Virus record (IMG/VR): IMGVR_UViG_3300012202_000001
Coordinates: 1-60,071 of that record
Origin: a virus
Taxonomy: Duplodnaviria; Caudoviricetes
Reading direction: 5' to 3' (one strand)
Length of the DNA: 60,071 bases
In this document: piece after piece, positions 1 through 58,564 of the stretch
Position numbering within the stretch: position 1 is the stretch's first letter
Layout: each line of letters opens with the position of its first letter
The notes under the pieces: generated by a model
Databases searched by the model: none
What the model saw: only the letters and a program-made list of their open reading frames with translations
What the model was told of the DNA's origin: nothing
Made by a program: the position numbers and the translations under genes

Positions 1-123
1 CCCCCGCATCTCATGCAGTTTCCACCCTGCTTGTAAAACAACTCGCGCCGGAACTCACTGTAGTCCCTTCCCGTCCGCTTCGTCCTTTTGTCCTTTGTCT
101 TGATGATCGGCATGTAGGGTCCA
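1..123. repeat. Terminal direct repeat (left copy), circular-assembly overlap
   Basis: 1-123 is identical to 59949-60071, and the HNH ORF at 59780-60061 runs through the repeat. Confidence 0.95.
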
Positions 124-693
124 TTCGTTAACCTCTGAACAGAGGAATTCTATAAACGTTTCCAGACTACACTCACCTTCCATGACTTTGTATTTCTCAA
201 ACGTTGCCTCAATCACCGACCAAGCCGACTCCTGAAAGTCGAGTGTGACCCTGTGCCGGAGTTCCAAGTGTTGATCGGGCGCCGTATCATGCACATCTTT
301 CAGGAAGTCCGCTGGCTTCTTCTTGGCGGACTTGCGCACAGCCGGATCCTGGCGCTTACTCTTCGACATCTGGACCAAGACGCCAGCAGAGCCCAAGGGA
401 ATCTCGGCTAACTCTTCGTGCGATATGTCGGGCGCGAGTTCCCGATAGCGGCCAATCACGAGGTACAGGTACGACCGGCTGGCCGGCGCCGCATCGAGGA
501 GCCATGCGTGGAAGGAATGAAAGCCTAAGATTTGCCAGTCCCGATCTTTGTCGACGTCGATACAGCATTTCGCAATGTCGGACCAGTCGCGGAATTGCCG
601 GTCAAAGTTGCGGACATACGAGTCTCGCGCTTCGGCCCTTTCTTTTGGGCTAAGCGTGACTTCTCTAATTTCCGGACACGTAATCGTTCCCAT
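55..693 (-). CDS. Hypothetical phage protein
   Basis: 212 aa ORF in the leftward replication-region operon; no motif recognised. Confidence 0.7.
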   Translation of the reverse strand: MGTITCPEIREVTLSPKERAEARDSYVRNFDRQFRDWSDIAKCCIDVDKDRDWQILGFHSFHAWLLDAAPASRSYLYLVIGRYRELAPDISHEELAEIPLGSAGVLVQMSKSKRQDPAVRKSAKKKPADFLKDVHDTAPDQHLELRHRVTLDFQESAWSVIEATFEKYKVMEGECSLETFIEFLCSEVNEWTLHADHQDKGQKDEADGKGLQ

Positions 694-3928: not shown

Positions 3929-4132
3929 ATGCCGTTTCCTAAGATCATTACCGAGCTTACAGCAGCAGGGTACGTATTCCAAAAGACGACTCGCTGTAGT
4001 GCTTGCGGTGTGCCGATTCAGTTCTGGAGAACTCCAAAGGGAAAGAGTATGCCAATGGTCGTATCCCCAGACGGTTCATGCGAGAGCCACTTTGCCACAT
4101 GCCCGAAAGCAAAAGACTTTCGCAAGAAGTAG
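3929..4132 (+). CDS. Small zinc-binding phage protein
   Basis: CSACG..I.F.RT.KGK.MP...SHFATCP. Confidence 0.75.
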   Translation: MPFPKIITELTAAGYVFQKTTRCSACGVPIQFWRTPKGKSMPMVVSPDGSCESHFATCPKAKDFRKK

Positions 4133-4722
4133 ATTTCGATCCTGAGCGCCACGAGTACAGACAGAATGGCATCATTTACCCGCACGTCACGAAGGTCATT
4201 GCGAGATCCGGAAAGTGTGATTGGTCCTGTGTCGATGAAGAACTCAGACTGCATTCGATCAAGCGAGGACAAAGTGTTCACTGGCTCACCCAGCTTGAAG
4301 ACGAAGGCGCCCTCGACTACCGCACCGTTCCCAAGGGTTTGCGCGGTTATCGAAAAGCATATCGAACGTGGAAACGTCAGTCTGGTTTTAACGTCATCTG
4401 GATTGAACGCAAATTCATCAGCCGTTACGGGTTTGCGGGGACTCTCGATCGAGCCGGTTCCTTCCCGGCGACAACCATGTACGGGTCGGGTACGTCAGGC
4501 GTGGTCGATCTCAAAACGGGAGACATCGCGGACTGGGTGCGCTATCAGTTGTGTGCCTACACCCTTGCAGTGGACCCACGTCCCGCCATCGCGCGAACCA
4601 TTCGCAGAATTGCACTGCGATTGTGTGCCGATGGAAAGTACCGCGTAAAAGAGTTTCCCATGCAGACCTGGGACAGCGACTTTGCCGAGTTCATGAAAGA
4701 TTTGAGGAGAGTGAATGCCTGA
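4099..4722 (+). CDS. PD-(D/E)XK exonuclease (probable partner of Bet)
   Basis: PHVTKVI, FAGTLDR, VVDLKTG and YQLCAY motifs; start chosen at ATG 4099. Confidence 0.8.
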   Translation: MPESKRLSQEVDFDPERHEYRQNGIIYPHVTKVIARSGKCDWSCVDEELRLHSIKRGQSVHWLTQLEDEGALDYRTVPKGLRGYRKAYRTWKRQSGFNVIWIERKFISRYGFAGTLDRAGSFPATTMYGSGTSGVVDLKTGDIADWVRYQLCAYTLAVDPRPAIARTIRRIALRLCADGKYRVKEFPMQTWDSDFAEFMKDLRRVNA

Positions 4723-5404
4723 AATTATCGAGCAGGAACAGGAACTCAAGCAGCAAGCTTTGACGGTTGTGGAACGCGCTACTCTGGTAAAGATCACCGA
4801 CCAGACGAGCTATGATGCGGCGTGCGACCTATTGCAGAAAGAAATAGTTCCGTTCAGAAAGAAGTGGGCAGACTACTGGAAGCCGCTAACAACTGCGGCC
4901 TGGGGCGCGTACAAAAAGGTTCAGGACAAATTCAAAGAAGGCGATGAGCCGGCAGAGAAAGCCGAGCGCTGGGTCAAACATGCAATCAGGGTGTGGGACG
5001 ATGAACAGATTCGAATTGAGCAGGAACAACAGCGTAAAGCGCAGGAAGCGGCTGAGAAAGTCGCAGAGGAGGAACGTCTACGTGCGGCAATTGTTGCGGA
5101 AGAAGCTGGAGCGAATGAGGCAGAAGTATCCGCAATCGTCGATGCTCCTGTTGTTGTCGTTGCAGAACCTGTCGTTCCTGCGTACAGCCGAACAGCCGGA
5201 ATCAGCCGGCGTGAGAACTTTAAGGCAAAGGTCGTGGATCTCCATGCGCTCGTAAAGGCGGCTGCCAAGGACAAGGCTCTACTGGCCTACTTGGAGCCAA
5301 ATCAGACTGCGCTAAATAATCGCGCTAAAGCTGACCGGCAGACGCTCAATATACCCGGAGTAGTTCCCTACAATGACGCTATTGTGTCCGCGAGAGGGCG
5401 ATGA
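4715..5404 (+). CDS. Coiled-coil protein of the recombination module
   Basis: Long E/A/K coiled coil ending in LNIPGV; lies between exonuclease and Bet. Confidence 0.7.
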   Translation: MPEIIEQEQELKQQALTVVERATLVKITDQTSYDAACDLLQKEIVPFRKKWADYWKPLTTAAWGAYKKVQDKFKEGDEPAEKAERWVKHAIRVWDDEQIRIEQEQQRKAQEAAEKVAEEERLRAAIVAEEAGANEAEVSAIVDAPVVVVAEPVVPAYSRTAGISRRENFKAKVVDLHALVKAAAKDKALLAYLEPNQTALNNRAKADRQTLNIPGVVPYNDAIVSARGR

Positions 5405-5898
5405 GTTTTACGGCAAAAGATTTAACGGGTCTTGTCTTCGGGCGCTACATAGCCATGTGGCCCGTTGGGCGTCGCGGAAATCCAAGCCGAATCATGTATC
5501 TCTGCGCTTGCAGATGTGGGCAAATTCGTTTAGTGGAAAGTAGCGGTCTGACACTGGGAAGGAATCGCAGTTGTGGCTGTTTACGAATGGATGCACTGAA
5601 GGCCGGCGTGCGTCGGGTACATGGTCATCGTGCTTCTGCGAGCCCGACATACCAGTCTTGGAAAGGAATGATTGGCAGATGCGAGTATCCAAAGCATGTA
5701 GGGTTTAAGAATTACGGAGGTCGTGGGATAAAGGTTTGTACGCGCTGGCGTAATTCGTTCTCTCGATTTTTGTCTGACATGGGACTAAGGCCACGCGGAA
5801 AAACGATCGATCGCATCAACAATAACGGGAATTACGAACCGTCGAATTGCAAGTGGGCCACTCGAAAAGAACAGCGTGCCAACCAGAGGAGGGTGTAG
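5401..5898 (+). CDS. Free-standing HNH-type homing endonuclease
   Basis: [51 protein letters not shown]. Confidence 0.85.
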   Translation: MSFTAKDLTGLVFGRYIAMWPVGRRGNPSRIMYLCACRCGQIRLVESSGLTLGRNRSCGCLRMDALKAGVRRVHGHRASASPTYQSWKGMIGRCEYPKHVGFKNYGGRGIKVCTRWRNSFSRFLSDMGLRPRGKTIDRINNNGNYEPSNCKWATRKEQRANQRRV

Positions 5899-5900
5899 CG

Positions 5901-6992
5901 ATGCCCAATGAATCGTTAGAAATATCTCACAAACCACAACTAACAGTTACGTCCGAACAGGCAAAGATCGCTCGCAACACAATCGCCAAAGGATTGAGCG
6001 ATGATGAGTTCGCTATCTTCCTCTACAACTGCCAACGTCAAGGCATTCACCCGCTAGATGGCTTACTTGTGCCGATCTCGCGGAACGACAAGGACGAAGG
6101 TAAGCGACTCACCTTCGTAACTACGGTAGATCTACTTCGTTCTCGCGCGGCAGAGAGCAACGAGTATGCCGGCAATGACGACGCGCACTTTGTGTACGGG
6201 CAAGGCGAGTATCCCGAAACGGCCACTGTGACGGTGTGGCGAAACGTTGAGATGTCTCGATGCGCCTTCACTGCATCGGCCCGATGGACCGAATACTACC
6301 CCGGAGACAAACAAGGGTTCATGTGGCGGAATAAACCCCACGTCATGTTAGGAAAATGTGCAGAGGCTCTGGCTCTTCGGAAGGCGTTTCCGAAACAACT
6401 CGCTGGCCTGTATCTAGCAGAAGAATTACAGAGGGAATCGATACAAGGTAATCAGAGTAGACCCCCCGCAAGAAAGCAGGAAAAGCCCGTTGGTGATGTA
6501 GTTTGCGCGGACTGCCGACAGACGAATGGGCATGCCGCGGATTGTAAATATGCCAGTAAAGGGAAATGCCCTGAATGTCGAGCGGAGGGGGGGCATCTTC
6601 CTTCCTGTAAATACCGCAAGACGCAGGAGGCGCAGACGCAGGAAGCCGAACCGGAGAAGAAGCCGGAAACGTTGAAGTGGCTGGTGCAGGTGGAAGCGAT
6701 CGATACGCGGGAGAAGACTGTAAAAGACAAGGCCGGGAAAGAATCCAAGCGCCCGTACCGCATGCTGACCTGCATCAACGCAGCCAACGAGAACGTTACG
6801 CTCTACGCCTGGGACACGAAACATTATGAGCGCATCGACGCGATCAAGGAAAAGACTCGTTGCGTTTTCTCGGTAAAGAGTTCTGTCAGCGGTAACACCA
6901 CGTACTACTCGATCGAGGAGATTATCGAGATCACCGGGGAGAAGAAACAGGCAGAGCCGCAGGATGAGATGCTTCCACCAGAAGAGAAGTAG
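5901..6992 (+). CDS. bet: Phage recombination protein Bet/RecT-family annealase with C-terminal extension
   Basis: IAKGLSDDEF..FL..C...G.HP, MW.NKPHVMLGKCAEALALRKAFP..LAGLY.AEE. Confidence 0.85.
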   Translation: MPNESLEISHKPQLTVTSEQAKIARNTIAKGLSDDEFAIFLYNCQRQGIHPLDGLLVPISRNDKDEGKRLTFVTTVDLLRSRAAESNEYAGNDDAHFVYGQGEYPETATVTVWRNVEMSRCAFTASARWTEYYPGDKQGFMWRNKPHVMLGKCAEALALRKAFPKQLAGLYLAEELQRESIQGNQSRPPARKQEKPVGDVVCADCRQTNGHAADCKYASKGKCPECRAEGGHLPSCKYRKTQEAQTQEAEPEKKPETLKWLVQVEAIDTREKTVKDKAGKESKRPYRMLTCINAANENVTLYAWDTKHYERIDAIKEKTRCVFSVKSSVSGNTTYYSIEEIIEITGEKKQAEPQDEMLPPEEK

Positions 6993-7426: not shown

Positions 7427-7743
7427 TGAATCGCAAGCCAAAAGCTAAGTGGATAAAATTCATTCATCCCCTCGGTGGCGGCGACTGGTATCACTGGGGA
7501 GATCTTTCGGTGTGTGTTGCGAAAGAAGAAGGCTTCTGGCATATTTCGATCTCTCTGCCCTATCGCTATCCGACTTGGGATGAAATTTTAGCCGCTTGGT
7601 ACGATCTGGTTCCCGGCGCCTGTGAAGACTTCGAGGGAGCCATCATCCTTCCGCGCAAGAGTGAGTACGTCAACATACATCCCAACTGCTTTCACGTTCA
7701 CCAACTTAATGATTCGGAGATTCCATCCAGCATCATCCTATGA
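7426..7743 (+). CDS. Small phage protein
   Basis: WHISIS...RYPTWDEI..P.KSEYVNIHPNCFH motif, recalled as common in phages. Confidence 0.75.
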   Translation: MNRKPKAKWIKFIHPLGGGDWYHWGDLSVCVAKEEGFWHISISLPYRYPTWDEILAAWYDLVPGACEDFEGAIILPRKSEYVNIHPNCFHVHQLNDSEIPSSIIL

Positions 7744-8942
7744 GCCCGACTCCGCTTCTCTTCCTCAGTGACGATCCAACCTCCGGCACCGGCCTAGGCC
7801 GCATCACGCGCGACTTGGCGACTCGCGTTCACAAGTACCTTCCCGACAAGTTCCGCGTGGCGACCTGTGGCTATGGGGGAAACTTTTCCCGCGAACTCGG
7901 CTTCCCGCAGTACTCCATCAAGATGCAGGACTGGGTTTGCTACAACCTGCCCGAGATATGGAAAGACTTTGCCGGCGATGAGCACGGCATCCTCATGCCG
8001 ATTTGGGATTGCTCCCGCTTGCTGTGGCTGGCCCGTCCTGAAAATTGCGAAGACCCTCGCCTGAGAGAATTTCTGCAGGAAAAACATTTCGACACTTGGA
8101 CCTATAGTCCGATGGATGCGCACGGAGTCGACGGCAAGCTTACAGGCGTGCTGAAACACACGCTGGAGGGATTCGATCGCGTGCTGGCGTATTCCAAGTG
8201 GGCTTACGACATTCTGGAAAAGACGCTCGACAAGAGCCGCTTCAACGATATTGACTGGCGCCCACACGGCATCGATACGAGCATCTGGTATCCCCGCAAA
8301 CGTATCGTCGCGCGGCATGGGTTTGGAGACAAGTTGGGAGCCAAGGACTTCCGTAACAAGGTCACGCGTATTCCCGATGACGCTTTCCTGATTGGCATCG
8401 TGGCAACGAATCAGGCACGCAAGGACTGGGGACTAGGAATGTCGGTCATCGCCGAGATCGCGAAGCAGCGCAATACGTGGTGCTGGCTGCATACCGACCG
8501 GCTGGAGAATGCCTGGAGCATCCCGATTTTGAGCCAGTGGGATTTTAAGATTCATGAGAAGGCCATCGTTACTACCGTCGACTATAGCGACGACAAACTC
8601 GCGTGGGCGTACTCAGCGTGTGACCTTACCTTGGGCATCGGCGCAGGGGAAGGCTTCGGTTTTCCGATATTTGAATCACTGGCTTGTGGAACACCATGTC
8701 TCCACGGCAGGTATGGTGGTGCACCGGAACACATGCCAGATTGTATGTTAGTCGATCCTTTCTTCCACCGAATTGATGGGGTTTACAGCTTAATGCGTCC
8801 CTGCTATCGCGTTGAAGACTGGGTCGAAAAAGCAAATGCACTGCTTGGCGTTAAAAGTGCTTTATCGATGCTTCCCGCTCACCTAGATTGGTCTAATCTC
8901 TGGCCGTCATGGGAAGAATGGTTTGAGAAGGGTTTGAAATGA
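7740..8942 (+). CDS. GT-B (GT4-like) glycosyltransferase
   Basis: SDDP..GTGLGR, PHGIDT, VATNQARKD, GEGFGFPIFESLACGTP. Confidence 0.9.
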   Translation: MSPTPLLFLSDDPTSGTGLGRITRDLATRVHKYLPDKFRVATCGYGGNFSRELGFPQYSIKMQDWVCYNLPEIWKDFAGDEHGILMPIWDCSRLLWLARPENCEDPRLREFLQEKHFDTWTYSPMDAHGVDGKLTGVLKHTLEGFDRVLAYSKWAYDILEKTLDKSRFNDIDWRPHGIDTSIWYPRKRIVARHGFGDKLGAKDFRNKVTRIPDDAFLIGIVATNQARKDWGLGMSVIAEIAKQRNTWCWLHTDRLENAWSIPILSQWDFKIHEKAIVTTVDYSDDKLAWAYSACDLTLGIGAGEGFGFPIFESLACGTPCLHGRYGGAPEHMPDCMLVDPFFHRIDGVYSLMRPCYRVEDWVEKANALLGVKSALSMLPAHLDWSNLWPSWEEWFEKGLK

Positions 8943-9619
8943 GGCCCCTCGTCTACATCGTCGCGTCCCGCGGATGGGCCGGTTTCATGGACTGCATCAG
9001 AACGTGGATTGACACTGCCTCAACTCCCTACAACGTGCATATCTCGATGGGTTTGGATGTGATGCCGGCGCTACAGCAGGGATACGAAAGCACAACGGAA
9101 CCGATTCTTTGTTACCTTCACGACGATTTCAAGATTTTGGAGGACAATTGGGACGCTCGCGTTCTCAAGGAGTTTAATGATCAGTCTGTGGGAATGGTGG
9201 TTACTTGTGGAGCAAGAGGTCACGGAGTTCGACATCTATATGAAACGCCGTATCACCTTCCCAACTTGGCGCGACAGAACTTCATGTCAAACATGGTCGA
9301 TGCCGAAGTGCATGGCGAACGATTCACCGGAGAGCGTGATGTTGTAGTAGGAGACGGAATGGCGTTATTCGTACGGCGGACGATCTTAGACAAGGTAGGT
9401 GGTTGGCCGGTGGATAAACCCGTGGGGTACTGGCTATATGCCGAATGGCTTACTTGTGAGACTCGGCGGCAGGGTTTCAGAATTCGTCTTGTGGGCATTA
9501 AGTGTCAACACTTGGGCGGAAAATCTTCCGGCTTTATCTCGCCTTCGATCTCGTACGAAGAGGCCCACCGATGGTTGTTTGAAAACAATCGGGATGTGTT
9601 ACCAGCATGGGTGGAGTAG
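8939..9619 (+). CDS. GT-A (GT2-like) glycosyltransferase
   Basis: ILCYLHDD (DxD-like), DGMALFVRR..L..VGGW, CQHLGG. Confidence 0.8.
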   Translation: MRPLVYIVASRGWAGFMDCIRTWIDTASTPYNVHISMGLDVMPALQQGYESTTEPILCYLHDDFKILEDNWDARVLKEFNDQSVGMVVTCGARGHGVRHLYETPYHLPNLARQNFMSNMVDAEVHGERFTGERDVVVGDGMALFVRRTILDKVGGWPVDKPVGYWLYAEWLTCETRRQGFRIRLVGIKCQHLGGKSSGFISPSISYEEAHRWLFENNRDVLPAWVE

Positions 9620-9677
9620 AATCAGGGCCGTCAGGTGTTGAAGCACCGGCAAAGCCTATCGCTACGAAGGAGCGAAT

Positions 9678-10169
9678 ATGACGACCCCGAGCACATCTTA
9701 CCGCACGATCGAACTCACCCAAGGGAAAGTAACAATCGTTAACGAGAAGCACTACGATTGGCTTTCGCAGTGGAAATGGTGTGCTCAACGCAATAATGAC
9801 AATTTTTATGCAGTGAGAACTTTCTGGATCGGTAATCATTGTTTCGGCTTAAAAATGCACCGCGTCATTCTTGGCCTGACTGCCGGTGATAAGCGCCTCG
9901 TCGATCATGTCAATTTAGATGGACTTGATAATCGAGAAGAGAACTTAAGAATCGCGACAACATCCAAGAATGCAATGAATAGACATGTTACGAAAATAAG
10001 TAAAAGCGGTCTTAAGGGAGTATTTTTCTATCGGGGAAAATGGAGAGCATCGATTGGACTGAACAACCGCGACATTTTTCTGGGTGATTATGCAACAACC
10101 GAACTTACTCATGAGGCATACTGCGAAGCAGCAGCAAAATATCACGGCAAGTTCGCGAGGTTTGCATGA
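9678..10169 (+). CDS. HNH-AP2 homing endonuclease
   Basis: IELTQGK, MHRVILG, VDHVNLDGLDNREENLR, SGLKGV..KWRASI..YHGKFAR. Confidence 0.9.
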   Translation: MTTPSTSYRTIELTQGKVTIVNEKHYDWLSQWKWCAQRNNDNFYAVRTFWIGNHCFGLKMHRVILGLTAGDKRLVDHVNLDGLDNREENLRIATTSKNAMNRHVTKISKSGLKGVFFYRGKWRASIGLNNRDIFLGDYATTELTHEAYCEAAAKYHGKFARFA

Positions 10170-11608
10170 AGGTCTGTTTAGTGACACCCCCGAGCGGATT
10201 TTTGCTAGATCAGCGTGTGTTTATGAGTTTAGGTATTTTGAAGGTGGGGGCAGTTCTGGAACAGGCAGGACACGAGGTCGATCATCTCGATCTCTCAGGA
10301 GTATCGAACTATGAGGATATTTGCCGGGATTATCTGCGCACTGGTAGCAATCCGGCTGGTGTGGTTTACGCGATCACTGCTACGACTCCTCAAATGCCAG
10401 CAGCGATCCGTATTCGTGAAGTCCTCGGAGGCAAGTGTATTATGGGTGGACCACATCCTACCCTGCTCGCTGCCGCCGCCAAGCGAGGGAACGCAAGAGC
10501 CATCAAAGCCCTGGGACATCTACTCGATGCGTTTGACACTATTGTGGCCGGCGATGGAGAAAGAGCCATCTTCCGAGCGCTCAAAGAGTACGGACTGATC
10601 GACGCGGACGATCCGAAGAGTGACCTGTGGCAAACCTCTAAGGATTTCACCGATTCCCCTTGGCCGGCACGTCACCTTGTTGATGTAAAGAGTTATCACT
10701 ACACGATTGACGGAGAGCAAGCCATTCATTTAATCGGGCAATTAGGATGCCCGATGTCATGCACGTTTTGTGCAGGAAGAAACAGTCCGATGCTACGACG
10801 TATGAGACTTCGTACTCCGGAAAACATTGTCGCGGAAGTGCTCCATTTACACGATAAGTACGGATTCAAGGGCTTCAATTTTTTCGATGACGAACTAAAT
10901 ATAAACAAACTGCTTCCCACTCTCTTGCGCGGTTTGATAGAGGCTGCGCGAGATCGAGGAGTGGAGTGGCGGCTGCGAGGTTTTATTAAGGCGGAACTGT
11001 TTACAGAAGAACAAGCTGCGCTCATGTACGAAGCTGGCTTCCGTTGGATACTGATCGGATTCGAGAGTGGATCTGATCGCATTCTCACAAACATCGAGAA
11101 GCGTGCGACGAAAGCGGAGAATACGCATGCCATGCAAATTGCGCACGATCACGGACTGAAGGTTAAGGCACTAATGAGCATTGGCCATGCTGGAGAGTCA
11201 GAACAGACCGTTCGGGATACCTACGATTGGCTTATCGAAACGAGGCCAGATGATCTGGACGTCACGGTAATTACGCCATATCCAGGAAGCCCGTACTGGG
11301 ATGAAGCTGTCGAAGTTGACGGAGGTATGTGGAGGTACAGCGCACACAAGACAGGCGATTATCTCTACATGGAAGAGATCGACTTTAGCGCCGTGGCCGA
11401 TTTTTATAAGGGCGTGCCCGGTGAGTACGTTAGCCATGTGTGGACCGATGCGCTAGCGGCTACTGAATTGTGTGAATTGAGAGACTGGTGCGAGTTCGAT
11501 TCCAAAGCAAGATTAGACATCGCCCTTCCACAGTCGGCAGCAGCGGTAATGTACGACCATTCAACAGGAATGACACCAGCCATCCTTCGTTCGTCGGTGA
11601 GTAAATGA
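10166..11608 (+). CDS. B12-binding radical SAM enzyme (class B methylase-like)
   Basis: N-terminal cobalamin-binding fold (SLGILKVGA..MGGPHPT..GDGE); CPMSCTFC motif; FFDDEL, IGFESGS, TPYPGSP. Confidence 0.9.
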   Translation: MKVCLVTPPSGFLLDQRVFMSLGILKVGAVLEQAGHEVDHLDLSGVSNYEDICRDYLRTGSNPAGVVYAITATTPQMPAAIRIREVLGGKCIMGGPHPTLLAAAAKRGNARAIKALGHLLDAFDTIVAGDGERAIFRALKEYGLIDADDPKSDLWQTSKDFTDSPWPARHLVDVKSYHYTIDGEQAIHLIGQLGCPMSCTFCAGRNSPMLRRMRLRTPENIVAEVLHLHDKYGFKGFNFFDDELNINKLLPTLLRGLIEAARDRGVEWRLRGFIKAELFTEEQAALMYEAGFRWILIGFESGSDRILTNIEKRATKAENTHAMQIAHDHGLKVKALMSIGHAGESEQTVRDTYDWLIETRPDDLDVTVITPYPGSPYWDEAVEVDGGMWRYSAHKTGDYLYMEEIDFSAVADFYKGVPGEYVSHVWTDALAATELCELRDWCEFDSKARLDIALPQSAAAVMYDHSTGMTPAILRSSVSK

Positions 11609-12114
11609 ATATGGGACGACCAAAACTAGATGACAACGGCACGCTGGCGGCGATTTGGGAAAGAACTATTAAAACGAAGCGTTGCTGGCTTTATGGAAAG
11701 ACTGACCGTTATCACTTTTTGAAACATGAAGGCAAGACAACGACCGTACATCGGTTCATCTACAAGATGACTGTCGGATCGGTCCCCGACGAACTAGACG
11801 TTTGTCACCGTTGTGATAATCGTCAATGTATTCGTCCAAGCCATCTCTTCCTTGGCACACCCGCAGAAAATAGTGCCGATATGGTCAAGAAGGGTCGCGC
11901 TGCTACAGGTAGTCGAAACGGAAAATCCACACATCCAGAAGCTACTCCACGCGGAGAAAAAGTAGGGACTGCAAGATTAACCGCACAGGATGTCGTTAAG
12001 ATCAGAGCCCTGCGATCTCAGGGATTGACATATCAAGAGATTGGGAAAACTTTTAACGTGCATCTGAGCACGGTAGCCTACGCTCTCACAAAGAATTGGA
12101 AGCACGTCGCATGA
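11605..12114 (+). CDS. HNH homing endonuclease with C-terminal HTH
   Basis: CWLY, HRFIY, VCHRCDNRQCIRPSHLFLGT..ENSADM..KGR. Confidence 0.9.
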   Translation: MNMGRPKLDDNGTLAAIWERTIKTKRCWLYGKTDRYHFLKHEGKTTTVHRFIYKMTVGSVPDELDVCHRCDNRQCIRPSHLFLGTPAENSADMVKKGRAATGSRNGKSTHPEATPRGEKVGTARLTAQDVVKIRALRSQGLTYQEIGKTFNVHLSTVAYALTKNWKHVA

Positions 12115-12187
12115 ATATTCCATTTTACGAAATACGAACAGCGCTTCTGTAAGTACGTTTGCGGACTGACAAACCAGCGAGGATCAA

Positions 12188-12910
12188 ATGAATGTTAATG
12201 CGACGTTCCTAGTTTGCAATCGTCCCAGACTCACGCAACAAGCACTGCTTTCTCTCGGCCCCACTGACGATGACGTGATGACCGTCACCGTCAGCGAAGA
12301 CAGCAAGTGCAACGATGAGACCCAAAAGGTATTGAGTGATTGGTATCAGTCCAACCCCAAGAATAGACATCTCTGCGGACACACCGCAGAGTACGGAACC
12401 GGATCACTGCGCAATCAAGTCATCGCAGCCAGTGAAAAATACTTTAACCGTGGAAGTCACCTCTACCTCAGTGATAACGACGTGTTCTTCTATCCTGCCA
12501 TTTTCGAAAAGCTGGTTCCGATCTATGAATACGCCTGGACTTTGGGATTTAAGGTACTGGGTGCCTACAATCATCCGTTCCATCAGCCGATAAATTCGAC
12601 TCCGGTCTATGGCGGCGGGAGAGCGATCATCTCGCGGGTCAACGAAGTGCATGCGCTCGCGCTGCAATCCATGCTCATGAAGTGGGAAGTGTGGGACAAG
12701 TACGGGCCTTTTGACGACACTCCAGTGGGACGGGTCCGCATGAGCGAGGACGTTGCTTTCACCAACAAGATCAAAGCTGATGGCGGACGTATCGGAGTGG
12801 TGAGCCCTGCGCTGGCAGTGAACACCGGCATCACCGACAGTTTCGGGGAAAAGATTCCCGGTTGGGAGATTGTCCAGAAGGAAGCACCGTTCGGGGTGTA
12901 CTTCGAATGA
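12188..12910 (+). CDS. GT-A (GT2-like) glycosyltransferase
   Basis: NRPRLT..AL.SL, LYLSDNDV, WDKYGPFD, SEDVAF. Confidence 0.8.
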   Translation: MNVNATFLVCNRPRLTQQALLSLGPTDDDVMTVTVSEDSKCNDETQKVLSDWYQSNPKNRHLCGHTAEYGTGSLRNQVIAASEKYFNRGSHLYLSDNDVFFYPAIFEKLVPIYEYAWTLGFKVLGAYNHPFHQPINSTPVYGGGRAIISRVNEVHALALQSMLMKWEVWDKYGPFDDTPVGRVRMSEDVAFTNKIKADGGRIGVVSPALAVNTGITDSFGEKIPGWEIVQKEAPFGVYFE

Positions 12911-13470
12911 GTCTGCCCACGTTTGATGACGCGATGGTCCTCACGAGCACGATCAGCAATATCTACTGCTTGCAGGTGGTGGAGTGCTTAGCGATGTATG
13001 AAACACTCTGCGAACTGCCGGAAGCAGCGACCGTGGTTGAAGTGGGATGTGACTATGGGCGTTCTTCAAGCCTGATTTTTCAGATGGCGAAAGCGAAAAA
13101 TTTCCTAACCATCCATATCGACCCTTGGCAGTCGAACCCAGACCGCGGAAAAGACTGGATGACGGTCATGTGTGAACGCTGTTCCTACCACCCGTTTATT
13201 TTGCTGCGCATGACCACGGAAGAAGCGGCGCCGTTTATCGAGCAACTGACCCCTCAAGGAATCGATCTCGCTTTCATCGATGGATCTCACGATCAACCTG
13301 TCGTTGAAAACGATATGAAAATAGTCGCCTCTCGCGTCAAGCCAGGGGGATTTCTTACCGCGCACGATTACCCGTCAGGAGGAGTTTCAGAGGCAATCGA
13401 TCCATTCGTTCGAAATGGATGGAGCAAACACAAGCAAGCTGGCGGATTCGGAGTGTGGAAGAGACTGTGA
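12907..13470 (+). CDS. Class I SAM methyltransferase (Methyltransf_24-like)
   Basis: VVEVGCDYGRSS, IDLAFIDGSHD, VKPGGFLTAHDY; ATGA coupled. Confidence 0.85.
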   Translation: MSLPTFDDAMVLTSTISNIYCLQVVECLAMYETLCELPEAATVVEVGCDYGRSSSLIFQMAKAKNFLTIHIDPWQSNPDRGKDWMTVMCERCSYHPFILLRMTTEEAAPFIEQLTPQGIDLAFIDGSHDQPVVENDMKIVASRVKPGGFLTAHDYPSGGVSEAIDPFVRNGWSKHKQAGGFGVWKRL

Positions 13471-14045
13471 ATACTGACGAACTGCTCGCTCTGGCTACTT
13501 CCATTGAAGGCCAGGGCTTCGCCGACGAGCCGAAACAGGTTTGCACTTACACCAGTTTCGAACTGAGATTGATAGCAAACTGCCTTCTGGAACTGCCTTA
13601 TGGCTCGCGCGTGCTGGAGATTGGAGTTTATGGCGGACGCTCAACTTCTCTCCTGTTCCAACTGCAGAAAGAACTCGGACTGGACATTCACCTGATCGAC
13701 AATTGGTCCTGGGATTCTGTGCGAGCGCTGCGCATATTCACCACGATGGTGCTCGAACACTTTAGCGAAGTTCCATTCACGTTGCACAAGATGCGAAGCG
13801 ACTACGCCGGTGCATACAAATGGTGTGAGCCCGTTGGATTTCTTCACATTGACGGCTGGCATGAAATGCCGGGGATTGAGTCCGACTGTCAACTATTTCT
13901 GCCTTGGGTCATATCAGGTGGAACCGTAGCGTTCCATGACTGTGATTATCTGCCGGTTGAGCAGTGTATTGACAAGTACGTACGCAACGCGGGATGGCAG
14001 CAGCTTGAAAGCGCAGGACGTTCGACCACTTGGAGAAAGCCGTGA
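13467..14045 (+). CDS. Class I SAM methyltransferase (Methyltransf_24-like)
   Basis: VLEIGVYGGRST, FLHIDGWHE, GGTVAFHD; GTGA coupled. Confidence 0.85.
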   Translation: MNTDELLALATSIEGQGFADEPKQVCTYTSFELRLIANCLLELPYGSRVLEIGVYGGRSTSLLFQLQKELGLDIHLIDNWSWDSVRALRIFTTMVLEHFSEVPFTLHKMRSDYAGAYKWCEPVGFLHIDGWHEMPGIESDCQLFLPWVISGGTVAFHDCDYLPVEQCIDKYVRNAGWQQLESAGRSTTWRKP

Positions 14046-14716
14046 ACCTAGCGGTAATCACACCTTGCCTGTATCCGGACACGGCGCGCATTCATTACCT
14101 CATAGACTCATGCGCCAAGCATAATGTCTCGCTCTCGTTCCACGGAAGAGGAGAGGTCTTCGGCGGCTGGAGTGCGATGCTCATGCGCTACACGCTCCCG
14201 CACATGCGGTCGTTGGCTGAACAAGGTTACTCCCATGTTCTCTTTGTGGACGCTATCGATTCTTTGTTCGTTGCCGGCATTAACGAGATTGCAGCCAAGT
14301 ATGAACGGCTTTGCGGAGACCACTCAACTTTAATCTCGGGCGATTCCGACCCGACTCCGCGCGGCGTCTACATTGACCCTGGACCGTGGAAATATTTAAA
14401 CGGAGGCGGGTATATCACGCCAATCGCGCCGTGGGTGTGCATGATTGAAAACCTGCACGAACTCTATCCCGAAGAAGGAAACTATCAAGTGTGGCTTGAA
14501 AAGCATTGGCCGCTCCCTGATTCCTATGTCGATTACGATTGCAAAATCTTTCAGCCGATGGACGGGAATCCTGCCGTAATGCCGGTCGGAGGGCGAGTGC
14601 TCAACGCGCTTACCGGATCCTGGCCTTGTATCCTGCATTTCCGCGGCGGCTATTGTGATCCTGTGACCGGGAGAGATGAACGAATGAAACCTTGGGTAGA
14701 GGCGCTTACACGATGA
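14042..14716 (+). CDS. PLOD/procollagen-type GT-A glycosyltransferase domain protein
   Basis: VLFVDAIDSLF, WKYLNGGGYI, DYDCKIFQ, PCILHFRG. Confidence 0.7.
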   Translation: MNLAVITPCLYPDTARIHYLIDSCAKHNVSLSFHGRGEVFGGWSAMLMRYTLPHMRSLAEQGYSHVLFVDAIDSLFVAGINEIAAKYERLCGDHSTLISGDSDPTPRGVYIDPGPWKYLNGGGYITPIAPWVCMIENLHELYPEEGNYQVWLEKHWPLPDSYVDYDCKIFQPMDGNPAVMPVGGRVLNALTGSWPCILHFRGGYCDPVTGRDERMKPWVEALTR

Positions 14717-15273
14717 CCTTCGAACAGGTGATGGAGTTCACGCGCGGAGTAAGCGCTCCGGATGCGTTTCAGGATGTCGAGTGCAAAGCTTTCTACGATG
14801 CTTTGCTGCATGTCCGGCCTGGGGGGATCGTAGTCGAGATCGGATGCCAGCTTGGGCGGTCATCGTCGATCATTGCGCAGATGCAGCCGGTCATCCACTA
14901 TCACGCCATTCATATTGACCCGTACACCGAGCAACCAGATTACCTGCGCGGCTGGACTGACATGATGTGGAGAGTCGGGAACCGGGACCATGAGTTTACC
15001 TTGATGTGTATGCGCACCGAGCAAGCCGAATGGCTTCTCAGCAGGATTGGCGAGATCGATCTAGCGTTTGTCGACGGAGACCACGAGTACCCATCGGTGA
15101 TGATCGATTTGAAGCTGGTCGCGGAGAGAGTGCGGCGGGGCGGGTATCTGACAGCGCATGATTTATCGAATGAAGGCTTGCCGGGAGTGAGCAAGGCTCT
15201 CGGAGAGTATATCGATGCGAAGTGGCACACGGTCGGGACCTTCGGCAGTCTGGGAGTGTGGATCAAAATATGA
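14713..15273 (+). CDS. Class I SAM methyltransferase (Methyltransf_24-like)
   Basis: VVEIGCQLGRSS, IDLAFVDGDHEY, GGYLTAHD; paralogue of 12907-13470. Confidence 0.85.
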   Translation: MTFEQVMEFTRGVSAPDAFQDVECKAFYDALLHVRPGGIVVEIGCQLGRSSSIIAQMQPVIHYHAIHIDPYTEQPDYLRGWTDMMWRVGNRDHEFTLMCMRTEQAEWLLSRIGEIDLAFVDGDHEYPSVMIDLKLVAERVRRGGYLTAHDLSNEGLPGVSKALGEYIDAKWHTVGTFGSLGVWIKI

Positions 15274-15779
15274 TCGGGCTCAACGTAGGCAGCGGACAGC
15301 GACCCTTTCATTCCACAAAAGAAGTGACGTGGATCAATATCGACTCACAGCCGAAATGGAATCCGGATGTGCTGTGCAGCGGTGTGGATCTTCCCTACTC
15401 CGGCTCTACGGTCGATTACGTTGTCCTGCATCACGTCTTAGAACACTTCGGATGCGGCGAAGGTGAAGGGCTGGTAAAAGAGGCTTACCGCGTGCTCAAG
15501 CCGGGAGGATCGCTACTCGTCTTCGTCCCAGACTTGAAGAAACTCGCGGTGGGATGGCTCAACAGCCAAATATCAACTCAGATCTACATGACGAATCTCT
15601 ACGGCGCCTACATGGGAAGTGAAGACGATCGCCACAAGTGGGGCTTCGACGTCACCAGCCTGTACAACTTTCTAAGGTCTTGTGCTGCATGGAAAGCCGT
15701 ACACGCAGGAACCCCGAACCTCCCCGGCGCCGATATTGCGAGGGATTGGTGGATCCTTGAAATGGAGTGCGTGAAATGA
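15270..15779 (+). CDS. Class I SAM methyltransferase (Methyltransf_11-like)
   Basis: LNVGSG, WINID, HVLEH, YRVLKPGG.L.V.VPD. Confidence 0.85.
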   Translation: MIGLNVGSGQRPFHSTKEVTWINIDSQPKWNPDVLCSGVDLPYSGSTVDYVVLHHVLEHFGCGEGEGLVKEAYRVLKPGGSLLVFVPDLKKLAVGWLNSQISTQIYMTNLYGAYMGSEDDRHKWGFDVTSLYNFLRSCAAWKAVHAGTPNLPGADIARDWWILEMECVK

Positions 15780-15797
15780 CGCTTAGGCTGGAAAAGT

Positions 15798-15828
15798 GTC
15801 CCAAAACTGTCCCAAATAGTTTTGGGAC
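15798..15828. repeat. 11-bp inverted repeat with an internal direct copy
   Basis: GTCCCAAAACT-gtcccaaat-AGTTTTGGGAC. Confidence 0.8.
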
Positions 15829-15843
15829 GGGGAAAAGCCCTCG

Positions 15844-16593
15844 ATGAACGGCATTCTGACACTGACCCGCAATAACCTCGCCCTCACCCAGCGAGCAATT
15901 CACTCTTTCTTGCGCCAAGACATCGTGACAGTCGTAATGGCAATCGACAACGGGAGCACAGACGGGACCGTCCCCTGGCTGAAAGCTTACGGCTGCCTTC
16001 TCCGTGCCGAGCCGGAGAATCGCGGGGTGAGTGCCGGCTGGAATTGTGGCCTTAAAATGTTCTTTGAAGCCGGCGCCGAAAATGTTCTTGTCGTAGGCAA
16101 CGATACGTGGCTTCCGCCCTACTTCTACCGGGAACTGCTCTCTTACAACCTGCCGTTCATGACTGGAGTAGCCGTCGACAACATGGAGCAGGTACAGCCG
16201 AAGCCCAGCAAGGCTCCTCTGGACCCGCATCCTGATTTTTCCGCCTACTGCATCCGTAAACGAATCTGGACAGAGGTCGGACCCTTCGATGAGCGCATGA
16301 AGCATTACGCCTCGGATTGCGATTGGCACATTCGGGCTCACCGCAAGTCTTATGGTCTGTGGAAAGCATCGTGTGAGTTTTACCACGAACGGTCGAGCAC
16401 GCTCAGGAATGCGTCTCCGGAAGATGCGCAGCAGATTCAGGAACAGGCGAACAAGGATCGGATGACGTTTCAGGCGCTCTACAATTGCCTACCAGGGCAA
16501 CCGGAGTACGAGGCGATATTCGCACAAAGCCCAGAGCCGCAGAAGGTTCCTTCTCGGGTATCGAATGACAACACTTTAGAAACCGGCACTTAA
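15844..16593 (+). CDS. GT2 glycosyltransferase
   Basis: IDNGSTDGT, NRGVSAGWN.GL, VVGND, VGPFDE, SDCDW. Confidence 0.9.
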   Translation: MNGILTLTRNNLALTQRAIHSFLRQDIVTVVMAIDNGSTDGTVPWLKAYGCLLRAEPENRGVSAGWNCGLKMFFEAGAENVLVVGNDTWLPPYFYRELLSYNLPFMTGVAVDNMEQVQPKPSKAPLDPHPDFSAYCIRKRIWTEVGPFDERMKHYASDCDWHIRAHRKSYGLWKASCEFYHERSSTLRNASPEDAQQIQEQANKDRMTFQALYNCLPGQPEYEAIFAQSPEPQKVPSRVSNDNTLETGT

Positions 16594-56212: not shown

Positions 56213-56402
56213 TTTTGCCGATGTCGTTTACTCCGGAAATTCCCCGCATTACGTCCCACTGCATGAGTGGAGTTTGATTCTGTTTTCCGTTCAAGCTTCC
56301 AATGATGGTTTGCACAGTCGAAACCGAATCCGCCGACCGTGCGGAGATTAGAGGAATCGAGCATCCTCTAGCTTTCCGAAACTGCTCTTGAAAGTTATTC
56401 AC
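56148..56402 (-). pseudogene. N-terminal fragment of a Ycf46-like AAA ATPase
   Basis: FRKAR..SIPLISARSAD..PLMQWDVMRG resembles the N-terminus of such ATPases; no Walker motifs; runs out of frame into the DUF3150-like gene. Confidence 0.45.
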
Positions 56403-56535
56403 CGTTTGCCCCCATGTGCTTAAACAACACAACAATCAAAACAAAACCTGAGATCACTACTCCAACGGGTCCCAGCAAAACCAGAATCGCCACAACTACC
56501 GCCATTGTTACCAGTACGCCTAAGGTCAATTGCAT
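56395..56535 (-). CDS. 46-aa hydrophobic membrane peptide, not in ORF track
   Basis: MQLTLGVLVTMAVVVAILVLLGPVGVVISGFVLIVVLFKHMGANGE; GGAGG upstream. Confidence 0.55.
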   Translation of the reverse strand: MQLTLGVLVTMAVVVAILVLLGPVGVVISGFVLIVVLFKHMGANGE

Positions 56536-56570: not shown

Positions 56571-56646
56571 TTTATAGAACGGAATTCAATAGATTGCAAC
56601 AATAAATATTATTTCTATTGACAGATATTCTGCACTCATGCAATAT
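56571..56646. promoter_or_regulatory. Back-to-back divergent promoters in an AT-rich spacer
   Basis: Minus strand: TTGCAA-17 nt-TATAAA (56599-56571); plus strand: TTGACA-17 nt-CAATAT (56618-56646). Confidence 0.6.
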
Positions 56647-56656
56647 TTACTTCGCA

Positions 56657-56860
56657 ATGAAGAACACACAACGGAGTAAAGCGAAAATGCAGAAACGACA
56701 GACGACTAACGACCACAAAACTACGGTGTCGTTTTCGATGTCGCAATTAGTAATCGAACGAGTCAAGACTTTGGCAGCACACGAAGACCGGCCAGTGTCT
56801 TGGATTGCGCAACGACTGATAACCGAAGCCTTGGACGCGCGCGAGGTTCAACGTGCCTAA
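56657..56860 (+). CDS. Ribbon-helix-helix regulator
   Basis: TVSFSMS..VIERVKTLAAHEDRPVSWIAQRLITEAL; similar to 2905-3075. Confidence 0.75.
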   Translation: MKNTQRSKAKMQKRQTTNDHKTTVSFSMSQLVIERVKTLAAHEDRPVSWIAQRLITEALDAREVQRA

Positions 56861-56914: not shown

Positions 56915-57463
56915 ATGAGTCTTGTTCAACGAATCCGCGAGCGAGCAGTAAGAGAACAAAGGTTTGAAATTGACGGAGAACAAACCATGACCACTTTGGC
57001 AATTCCCTTTCCCGAACCTTTGGCTGTACCGGGTTGCGTTGGCAGTGTTAACGCCATTGGACTTTGTTTGTTGGCTCGTGGGGTTCCTCGTGGGGCATAT
57101 AGTAGTCCGCTTTATGGCTGGTTGGAGCTACGGGAAAGATTCTTGAATAAACGTCTGCTCTGGGGAGGGCCGGACAAAATGAAAAATGAAGTATTGCGAA
57201 CAGTTTTGACAAGCAGTGTGGCAGAGCACATTCACGCTTTCCGTGCTCTTAATGAATGCTCACAGCAGGACATCATGCGAGGACGCGAAGCGCTGCGCGA
57301 CTGGATCGGGACACAACGGGAAACCACGTTCAAGGACCTGGGAGACCTCGGCGTGCTGTCTGTCCTACTGGAAGAGTTTGCCAACTTCGCAATCTACGTT
57401 AGCGAAGAGTTAAAAGAGGAGAATCGCGATGTCTACCTGTGCCAACGCGGGGGGAATGCGTAA
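56915..57463 (+). CDS. Hypothetical protein
   Basis: ORF; internal GGAG-ATG start possible. Confidence 0.55.
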   Translation: MSLVQRIRERAVREQRFEIDGEQTMTTLAIPFPEPLAVPGCVGSVNAIGLCLLARGVPRGAYSSPLYGWLELRERFLNKRLLWGGPDKMKNEVLRTVLTSSVAEHIHAFRALNECSQQDIMRGREALRDWIGTQRETTFKDLGDLGVLSVLLEEFANFAIYVSEELKEENRDVYLCQRGGNA

Positions 57464-57476
57464 CGACAACTGAGCC

Positions 57477-57623
57477 ATGTCAAACGTAAATTTCGCTTCG
57501 ATTAGAGACTCCATCGTGGACTGGCTGTACACACTCTTTTTAGGGCTGATGTGCGGCTGGGTTCTGTACGGGCTCTATCTCTTGGCGCACATGATTCTGG
57601 AAAGCTTGGGGGTGAGGTGGTGA
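57477..57623 (+). CDS. 48-aa single-TM peptide, not in ORF track
   Basis: MSNVNFASIRDSIVDWLYTLFLGLMCGWVLYGLYLLAHMILESLGVRW; GTGA overlap with the recombinase. Confidence 0.5.
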   Translation: MSNVNFASIRDSIVDWLYTLFLGLMCGWVLYGLYLLAHMILESLGVRW

Positions 57624-58315
57624 AAGCGTTCAGCTACCTTCGCGTCAGCGGCTTGGGGCAAGTCGATCGCGACGGCTTCACTCGGCAAAGAGAGACGATC
57701 CAGAAATACGCCGACTCCAACGACATCGAAATTATTGAAGAGTTCCGCGACGAAGGCGTCCCAGGGAAAACAGAAATGGCTGACCGGCCTGGACTCGCTC
57801 TACTGCTCTCACGACTGGAGACTAACGGGGTCCGGCTGGTGATCGTGGAGATCTCCGACCGACTGGCGCGCGACACCGTGGTGAATGAGTTGATCGTGCG
57901 CGAGTTCCAGAAACTAGGCGTTAAGGTCATCTCCGCGTCTGGGGGAGTAGACCTCACGGCTGGCGACGACCAGAATCCTACGGCAAAGCTTATCCGGCAG
58001 ATCCTAGCGGCTGTGGCTGAGTTTGACCGCTGCATCATCATCCTGAAGACGAAGGCCGCACGCGATCGAGTGCGAGCTAAAAATGGGAAATGCGAAGGCC
58101 GATGGGCGTACGGGAAAAAGCCTGGGGAAGAGTTCGTACTGGCGACCATCCTTCAACTTGCTCACAACGGACACTTTGCGGAATACATCGCCCGGTATTT
58201 GAACGACCAAGGCGCCAAGACGCGCTACGGGAAGACATGGAACTCAGGAACCATCTGGAAAATCATCGCGCGCAACAAACAGGCTTCTTTGAAGCAGAAA
58301 GGTTGCTCTTTATGA
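57620..58315 (+). CDS. Serine recombinase (resolvase family, short C-terminal domain)
   Basis: YLRVS, DEGVPG..RPGL, DRLARD, RQILAAVAEFDR; no Zn-ribbon/coiled-coil domain of large serine integrases. Confidence 0.9.
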   Translation: MKAFSYLRVSGLGQVDRDGFTRQRETIQKYADSNDIEIIEEFRDEGVPGKTEMADRPGLALLLSRLETNGVRLVIVEISDRLARDTVVNELIVREFQKLGVKVISASGGVDLTAGDDQNPTAKLIRQILAAVAEFDRCIIILKTKAARDRVRAKNGKCEGRWAYGKKPGEEFVLATILQLAHNGHFAEYIARYLNDQGAKTRYGKTWNSGTIWKIIARNKQASLKQKGCSL

Positions 58316-58461
58316 GTCGAGTAAAACTTGTAGCGTTTGGGGTGCTGTTGCTGGCAGGAATGGTGCTGGCAGCGTTCGCACCAGCCTTTGCCGATGGTGG
58401 ACCGCTGATTCTGTGTCCTCCAAGGTCGAAGACCTGCGTGTGCACGCTGCCTCGCTGCTAA
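58312..58461 (+). CDS. Secreted Cys-rich micropeptide (49 aa)
   Basis: ATGA-coupled to the recombinase; signal peptide ending AFA; mature DGGPLILCPPRSKTCVCTLPRC. Confidence 0.65.
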   Translation: MSRVKLVAFGVLLLAGMVLAAFAPAFADGGPLILCPPRSKTCVCTLPRC

Positions 58462-58481
58462 AGGGATAGCAAAGCAACACC

Positions 58482-58518
58482 AGCCCCCTTTCGGGTTCCA
58501 GTCCGGAGGGGGCTTTTT
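58482..58518 (+). terminator. Intrinsic terminator between convergent operons
   Basis: AGCCCCCT..AGGGGGCT followed by a T run. Confidence 0.75.
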
Positions 58519-58564
58519 AATTGTATCCATTTCTTCTCCACGATTGAGCCCCCACGACTCCGAA

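Follow-up and report, generated by a model that had tools for sequence, protein, structure and literature searches.

A micropeptide gene at the end of a phage operon

The virus record IMGVR_UViG_3300012202_000001, analysed over its whole length of 60,071 bp and referred to below as the window, is a complete genome with direct terminal repeats. On its plus strand, at positions 58312 to 58461, lies a micropeptide gene which, judged by sequence comparison, very probably is a genuine secreted-type peptide gene, homologous to a family of chromosomally encoded host peptides. The initial annotation had described the product as a 27-aa signal peptide followed by a 22-aa four-cysteine peptide, and the gene as the last before the terminator of an operon encoding a ribbon-helix-helix (RHH) protein and a recombinase; the peptide layout is borne out in a rule-based check, and the operon position by the gene order and by a hairpin followed by a T-run. 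The features of the operon are as follows.

56618-56647, plus strand: promoter-like site at the head of the operon (TTGACA, 18-nt spacer, AATATT, with TG; 10/12 consensus matches)
56657-56860, plus strand: operon gene 1, RHH regulator, Arc/CopG-like (Pfam RHH_5, E 6.6e-7, 29.4 bits against a cut-off of 26)
56915-57463, plus strand: 182-aa open reading frame (ORF), 97% identical in contig L004
57477-57623, plus strand: 48-aa hydrophobic ORF between the 182-aa ORF and the recombinase gene
57620-58315, plus strand: serine recombinase, 231 aa (Pfam Resolvase E 1.6e-26, Recombinase E 5.2e-6); its GTG start overlaps the stop of the preceding ORF
58312-58461, plus strand: micropeptide gene, ATG at 58312, stop TAA at 58459-58461, 49 aa, MSRVKLVAFGVLLLAGMVLAAFAPAFADGGPLILCPPRSKTCVCTLPRC
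58312-58392, plus strand: signal-peptide part, 27 aa, ending in AFA
58393-58461, plus strand: predicted mature peptide with the stop codon, 22 aa, DGGPLILCPPRSKTCVCTLPRC, cysteine spacing C-x6-C-x-C-x4-C
58485-58522, plus strand: intrinsic terminator closing the operon, a 12-pair hairpin at 58485-58512 (7 GC) followed by CTTTTTAATT as T-run

The operon reading is supported because the ORFs share one orientation and are closely spaced or overlapping, the gaps being 54 nt after the RHH gene, 13 nt after the 182-aa ORF, and -4 nt after both the 48-aa ORF and the recombinase gene, the last of these junctions leading into the micropeptide gene, whose ATG overlaps the recombinase TGA stop (ATGA, 58312-58315). 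The ribosome-binding site of the micropeptide gene in the window is weak (AAAGG 9 nt upstream), and the terminator hairpin begins 23 bases past its stop, with a fold z-score of -3.3 relative to shuffles. Shuffled sequence would be expected to give 1.8 promoter-like sites where the region has two, so that the site at the operon head, a consensus match only, is weak when taken alone. For the RHH gene, where the ATG at 56657 is our choice of start, the Pfam match and a further match to a PHROG Arc-like repressor (E 9.8e-5) both span 56681-56860. The 182-aa ORF has no Pfam, PHROG or credible NCBIfam match, and the downstream neighbour of the micropeptide gene is a 173-aa ORF with no function assigned. 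The small transmembrane peptides at 57477-57623 and 56395-56535 to which the initial annotation had also pointed both exist as ORFs, whereas the coding status of the former is doubtful on sequence grounds: it is 89% identical to its L004 counterpart, versus 97-98% for its neighbours, and a variant contig from a soil run has one nucleotide inserted after 57485, inside the ORF.

The mature peptide is under purifying selection

Pfam, PHROGs and NCBIfam hold no family match for the micropeptide, and its best score in the ESM Atlas was 0.84, to unnamed clusters, with a 'PagK phage virulence factor' cluster at 0.77, below the threshold for a lead. A word-based protein search gave two relatives, scans of viral, metagenome and genome sequences and a full profile search revealed others in phages and in Acidobacteriota, and the ORF is conserved. 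Over the 66-nt mature region, 10 pairwise comparisons among five phage copies gave proportions of synonymous differences (pS) of 0.47-0.88 versus proportions of nonsynonymous differences (pN) of 0.04-0.22, the pN/pS ratio being about 0.08-0.26. Frame +0 is the sole stop-free frame in all six of the six phage copies; the antisense ORFs at 58225-58530, 58263-58445 and 58310-58480 (minus strand) were considered as candidates and rejected, as none is open in all copies. GGAG-type ribosome sites are found 6-10 nt upstream of the gene in L003, L008, L010 and L011.

Conservation is distributed unevenly along the product. In a comparison of six phage-type sequences, little of the signal part is shared, but hardly any change is seen from A-F-A-D to the end of the peptide, where AFADGGPLILCPP, K40 and all four cysteines are invariant; the four cysteines, D28-P31, L34 and P37 are invariant in 11/11 phage-type sequences. 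Within the mature part, 13 of the 22 residues are invariant among phage copies, unrelated backbones included, and the window and L010 are identical at 20 of 22 positions. A variant contig from a soil run makes a weak addition, with 10 single-nucleotide polymorphisms (SNPs) in 57917-58306 and none in 58312-58560.

Nine of these ten differences are packed into 58165-58306, the last 142 nt of the recombinase gene, followed by none in the next 255 nt; a boundary left by recombination may lie here, where the peptide cassette begins.

The signal-peptide call is a rule-based check of sequence layout: the N-terminus holds two K/R residues, followed by a hydrophobic stretch with a best 12-aa Kyte-Doolittle mean of 2.77, and alanines stand at -3 and -1 before D28, as in an A-x-A cleavage layout. 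In an AlphaFold2 (AF2) model of the phage pre-peptide (A7), a helix spanning residues 3-22 is the only confident part, with a predicted local distance difference test score (pLDDT) of 82-86. The net charge computed from sequence is +1 to +3. A lipoprotein was considered and rejected by comparison with the lipobox consensus: the residues before the first cysteine are L-I-L, that cysteine lies 8 residues past the AFA site, and there is no lipobox.

The peptide gene occurs in unrelated phage backgrounds

Relatives of the micropeptide gene are present in at least five other phage backgrounds. L009/L010 represent a relative of the window's phage, where a recombinase C-terminus 66% identical to that of the window is followed by the peptide, the terminator, the 173-aa gene (70%) and an HNH gene (64%), and where the similarity continues beyond the HNH gene with homologs of window 55-693 and onward. 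The L010 peptide gene starts 22 nt past the recombinase stop, with its own Shine-Dalgarno (SD) sequence and an equivalent hairpin and T-run. L003 (with L005, L006 and L007), L008 and L011 have nothing in common with the window except for the peptide; the genes of L003, L008, L011 and L062 have another setting, an early region, and no recombinase adjoins them. The early regions of L003, L008 and L062 encode the exonuclease phrog_149 (E 1e-34 to 1e-41), and those of L003 and L062 an Erf-like annealing protein, versus a RecT-like protein in the window. The recombinase link is present only in the window's own lineage (the window, L004 and L009/L010). In the phage L002, whose recombinase is 44% identical, the recombinase gene is not followed by such a peptide gene.

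GC-rich hairpins lie 3' of the gene in five of the six copies folded, the hairpin being nearly identical in L003 and L011, and the L008 fold is indistinguishable from shuffles. When assessed as a moron, the gene has a terminator or hairpin and, in the other copies, an SD sequence of its own; no separate promoter is seen in the window, where it is coupled to the recombinase. In terms of genomic context, the peptide gene behaves as a small mobile accessory cassette, and its coupling to the recombinase is a feature of one lineage.

Two further observations concern these neighbourhoods. In L002 an ORF with a hydrophobic segment at its C-terminus (4590-4838, plus strand) overlaps the recombinase gene and takes the place after it. 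In the Erf-type lineage the peptide gene is immediately preceded by small cysteine-rich, zinc-finger-like ORFs (L003 1416-1661, L011 1345-1587 and L062 977-1475, all plus strand), which have weak PHROG matches and no function assigned.

A family of DGGP Cys-loop peptides in Acidobacteriota

The micropeptide belongs to a family, here called DGGP Cys-loop micropeptides, that is not described in Pfam, NCBIfam or PHROGs; the literature searched, a scope outside which supplements and possible small-ORF catalogues lie, holds no paper on it. As judged by sequence, this is a new peptide family common to Acidobacteriota and their phages. Its members share a signal sequence, a head of the form (A)DGGP-[IL]-x-[LMTV]-C-[PN]-P and a short basic loop closed by a second cysteine, with the first cysteine 3-4 residues past DGGP, then x-P, and the second cysteine 3-9 residues on (C35-x6-C42 in the window). 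D28, G29, G30, P31, C35 and P37 are invariant in an alignment of 19 sequences (A3), and the D, G and P of the head in a host alignment of 25 (A6); the profile search returned E-values of 2.7e-17 to 7e-4 for 18 representatives.

A scan of one genome per prokaryote species matched two Acidobacteriota metagenome-assembled genomes (MAGs; G001/G002), at host-type loci only. Both encode a 61-aa protein, MKRT[VI]RIAVLMVGLVGTFIAAAVQQVPAADGGPLLLCPPKSKTCKTTPARPVEPRQDATTR, in a housekeeping neighbourhood with transketolase-like, CBS, DUF255 thioredoxin-like, M20 peptidase and MOFRL genes. A 19-member profile found matches in 10 of 401 genomes phylum-wide, five of the ten being weak and unconvincing on inspection, and, at E<=1e-4, in 49 of 201 genomes of the bacterial family to which the MAG belongs. 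All 32 of the 32 host loci encode a 43-61-aa ORF with an N-terminal hydrophobic segment, a D/E-G-G-P head (GIGP in one) and exactly two cysteines, and all 32 have a convergent downstream DUF255 gene; in 26 of them a gene for a membrane protein of about 308 aa lies upstream on the same strand within 1.5 kb. Five 20-kb host regions show the same gene order, and in one genome the peptide gene is present in three tandem copies. By these comparisons the host peptide is a single-copy, syntenic chromosomal gene in one Acidobacteriota family. No homolog of the membrane protein gene or of the DUF255 gene was found at the phage loci, the window included (tblastn E>0.3), so that the phage copies are, as far as sequence tells, members of the family by sequence and not by locus.

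The host membrane protein (L012 4674-5600, plus strand, and orthologs; A4) is predicted by AF2 to have seven transmembrane and two C-terminal helices (pLDDT 79.4). It has no Pfam family, and the ESM Atlas returns only Acidobacteriota hypothetical proteins. A fold search against the PDB gave no match at E<=0.001, the best hits being generic 7-helix receptor bundles (TM about 0.4, E 4e-3); such a modelled likeness to receptors is weak and one of topology only. Complex prediction between this 7-helix protein (A4 1-270) and the mature host peptide (A6 23-61), run without controls, scored 0.00 and 0.01 versus a mark of 0.32, a result that counts neither for nor against an interaction.

Larger proteins with the same unit were also encountered. 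In the tandem precursors P0005, P0006, P0007, P0011 and P0015 the unit ADGGP-x3-C-x-P...C...NLP is repeated 2-4 times with NLP-type linkers, and P0008 and P0009 fuse the DGGP unit with a second unit type, ADGSDPMPLC. A Pfam Sex_peptide match of P0005 (E 1.1e-5, 25.9 bits against a cut-off of 25) was set aside as probably a chance resemblance of short cysteine loops. L061, a 109-kb viral contig with a GC content of 0.47, encodes a 465-aa signal-peptide protein (4876-6273, plus strand) with a DGGPLPLCPP module and a Cys/Pro-rich tail at its end; two adjacent small secreted-type ORFs of the same contig (11773-11913 and 11914-12084, both minus strand) represent the DGGP type and the ADGSDPMPLC type, one each.

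The phage peptide as a possible mimic of the host peptide

Phage peptides have DGGP directly after AFA and four cysteines, versus two in host peptides. Over the core DGGPLxLCPPKSKTC, L010 or L003 is identical to G001/G002 at 14 of 15 positions, and the window at 13 of 15; at the DNA level, phage and host cores differ with pS 0.81-0.85, synonymous sites being near saturation, and pN 0.03-0.06, the values for L010 and L003 being pS 0.82-0.85 and pN 0.03. Other host lineages have different loops. The phage tail C-V-C-T-L-P-R-C resembles the host-type tail C-Q-S-T-L-P-T in P0013. None of the 602 Acidobacteriota genomes searched has the four-cysteine form; the only occurrences seen are viral, phage-like or on contigs whose context is unknown. 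Compared with the host peptide, the phage versions have an almost unaltered head and loop and an additional, second pair of cysteines in the tail. Of the 201 genomes sampled from the same Acidobacteriota family, two have homologs of the major head protein of the window's phage (36% identity, E 2e-59), and this soil phage probably infects Acidobacteriota.

A mimic of a host peptide signal was among the possibilities listed in the initial annotation, and it gains support from the homologous Acidobacteriota chromosomal peptide, whose core is 14/15 identical in two MAGs. We favour a model, which we judge about evenly poised between right and wrong, in which the phage product imitates a secreted or envelope peptide of the host, is stabilised by disulfide stapling and acts on the natural partner of that host peptide. 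The pre-peptide would be exported by the Sec pathway and most likely cut after AFA by signal peptidase I, releasing a mildly basic 22-residue peptide into the periplasm or the medium, where its four cysteines would form two disulfides. Outside the cytoplasm, the phage peptide would then occupy the natural partner of the host peptide in the cell envelope, acting as either an agonist or an antagonist, and, during expression of the regulatory/recombinase operon, would shift host envelope physiology or envelope access to the benefit of the phage.

Known systems of two kinds come close to this model. Peptides of the heat-stable enterotoxin type are Sec-exported, disulfide-stapled products of mobile elements that resemble an endogenous peptide ligand; the DGGP peptide is unlike them in that it has no sequence relation to them and that its setting is a phage and its bacterium. 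The agr cassette of the Clostridium difficile phage phiCDHM1 likewise contains a phage homolog of a host gene for a secreted quorum-sensing peptide (PMC3901668), and such carriage suggests that the phage manipulates or eavesdrops on a host peptide system. Unlike in phiCDHM1, the peptide gene stands alone here, with no processing enzyme or sensor kinase; its family is unrelated to AgrD, and the host DGGP system is known from genes alone.

Several points weigh against the proposed mimicry. Export, cleavage and disulfides are read from sequence rules, and the envelope partner is hypothetical. In the AF2 model the mature part reaches a pLDDT of only about 54. The near-identity of the 15-residue core could reflect a shared structural constraint instead of a shared target. 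The A-DGGP junction recurs inside the tandem-repeat proteins, so that the alanine may be a part of the module and not only of a cleavage site. A 'phage-only' four-cysteine form is unproven, as P0002-P0004, P0008, P0012 and P0014 lack genomic context; the host-family genome counts are samples of MAGs of unknown completeness; and the host assignment is indirect, the head homologs fitting an Acidobacteriota host without proving one.

A bolder extension of the mimicry model, which we consider unlikely as it stands, is that Acidobacteriota of one family use the Sec-exported DGGP peptide as an extracellular or periplasmic signal, possibly sensed by the 7-helix protein, and that several unrelated soil phages have captured the peptide and re-engineered it with a second disulfide into a stabilised agonist or antagonist to hijack this signal. 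If true, this would be the first phage peptide-signal mimic in a diderm soil phylum and the first handle on peptide signalling in Acidobacteriota, which are among the most abundant soil bacteria and whose phages and cell-to-cell or envelope peptides are little known. The comparison links a conserved, unannotated host micropeptide locus with phage-borne copies under strong selection, and yields a concrete, synthesisable 22-residue molecule together with a defined host locus (7-helix gene, peptide gene, DUF255 gene), with which a possible manipulation of host peptide systems by phages can be probed in diderm soil bacteria. It also illustrates that even a very short ORF closing an operon on a viral metagenome contig can prove to be a genuine, mobile gene.

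Alternative functions

An unlikely alternative, to be weighed on the same sequence features, is superinfection exclusion or receptor masking, where the peptide would bind an envelope component and block adsorption or DNA entry, its target being unrelated to the role of the host peptide. The gene encodes a small exported-type product in an early or regulatory operon and travels as a mobile cassette in several phage lineages, and blockers of receptors or of DNA entry are an established class of small secreted proteins. Among these, T5 Llp and Cor are small exported lipoprotein exclusion products of early or lysogenic genes that act on the envelope, and we know of no host homolog of either. The DGGP peptide differs from both in having a host homolog, no lipobox and no sequence relation to them. 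The class also includes the bacterial HXS effector, a short signal-peptide product in phage-bacterium conflict, reported to be periplasmic and to block DNA entry (PMC13128918). Unlike the HXS effector, which has His-x-Ser repeats and needs a radical S-adenosylmethionine (SAM) maturase, the DGGP peptide is phage-borne and cysteine-based, and no maturase is adjacent. Exclusion, however, leaves the close match of head and loop to a chromosomal host peptide unexplained. By analogy, the action of the peptide would be closest to that of host peptide genes carried by phages, and could also be like that of exclusion proteins, while by sequence it is a member of neither group.

The family could also represent Sec-dependent bacteriocin-like or toxic peptides, with the host 7-helix protein as immunity protein and the phage copy inhibiting non-immune neighbours, a proposal we hold to be decidedly improbable. 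The peptides are small and basic (+1 to +3), carry a signal sequence and are predicted to be cysteine-bridged, and the gene for a multi-pass membrane protein without known family precedes the host gene at 26 of 32 loci. Yet bacteriocin loci are typically variable, whereas the host gene is conserved vertically, as a single copy and in synteny; none of the phage copies has a gene for an exporter or for immunity beside it, and no bacteriocin family in Pfam or NCBIfam is matched.

The initial annotation had placed its emphasis on a candidate phage signal coupled to the recombinase, naming arbitrium for comparison while noting that an RRNPP receptor is absent. Arbitrium systems are built from AimR, AimP and AimX. 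Here, such a signal would report phage density and bias the lysis-lysogeny decision through the RHH/recombinase module, and the window does encode a secreted-type short peptide whose gene shares an operon with those for a repressor-like RHH protein and a recombinase; it is translationally coupled to the recombinase gene and, in L010, lies 22 nt past it. The likeness to AimP of the Bacillus SPbeta-group phages (PMC6536502) extends to a short phage pre-peptide with a secretion signal (rule-based in our case) and to a location in a lysis-lysogeny regulatory region. However, the absence of the receptor is confirmed within the scans made: no TPR or RRNPP-type receptor, and thus no AimR-type gene, is found among the 20 window ORFs scanned with Pfam or the 30 scanned with PHROGs, the operon ORFs included. 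The recombinase link is missing in L003, L008, L011 and L062. The mature peptide has 22 residues and four cysteines, with predicted disulfides, in contrast to the linear, imported 6-residue peptide of arbitrium (PMC6536502). Instead of being phage-specific, it is near-identical across unrelated phages and host-like, with a chromosomal host homolog, and therefore could not be a private channel; the probable host, moreover, is a diderm, one of the Acidobacteriota. With a lineage-specific recombinase link, no receptor gene found and a mature peptide that has not diversified, an arbitrium-like signal is therefore very improbable, and a recombinase-coupled communication signal of that kind is not supported.

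It is hardly credible that the product is a precursor akin to ribosomally synthesized and post-translationally modified peptides, matured before export by the phage's own B12-binding radical SAM enzyme: such an enzyme is encoded at 10166-11608 of the window, and a signal-peptide-bearing effector matured by a radical SAM enzyme is on record (PMC13128918), but this gene, the only one of its kind, belongs to a glycosyltransferase cluster and is separated from the peptide gene by about 11.8 kb, counted across the genome ends, and no maturase adjoins any peptide copy, phage or host, or is found among the conserved host neighbours. The very short length, the missing family match and the weak ribosome-binding site in the window would fit an ORF open by chance, or a non-coding spacer separating recombinase gene and terminator, but this is almost certainly the wrong explanation given strong purifying selection across phage lineages and hosts, the proposed frame as the only one open in all copies, and good ribosome-binding sites in other copies.

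Other features of the window

The recombinase is short, with 231 aa in the window and 221 aa in the L002 relative (3992-4657, plus strand), and aligns with the N-terminal third of a large serine integrase profile; its match to the PHROG_95 integrase (E 2.7e-37) covers profile positions 88-309 of 651 only. It is the only recombinase found in the window, and integration, multimer resolution and inversion are all possible roles. A glycosyltransferase-like run extends over window 7740-16593 (7740-8942, 8939-9619, 12188-12910 and 15844-16593) and includes a methyltransferase-like gene (13419-14045) and the gene for the B12-binding radical SAM protein (10166-11608, plus strand; Pfam Radical_SAM E 1e-23, B12-binding E 8e-8). 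From its gene content, this region may be a glycan or DNA modification cassette.

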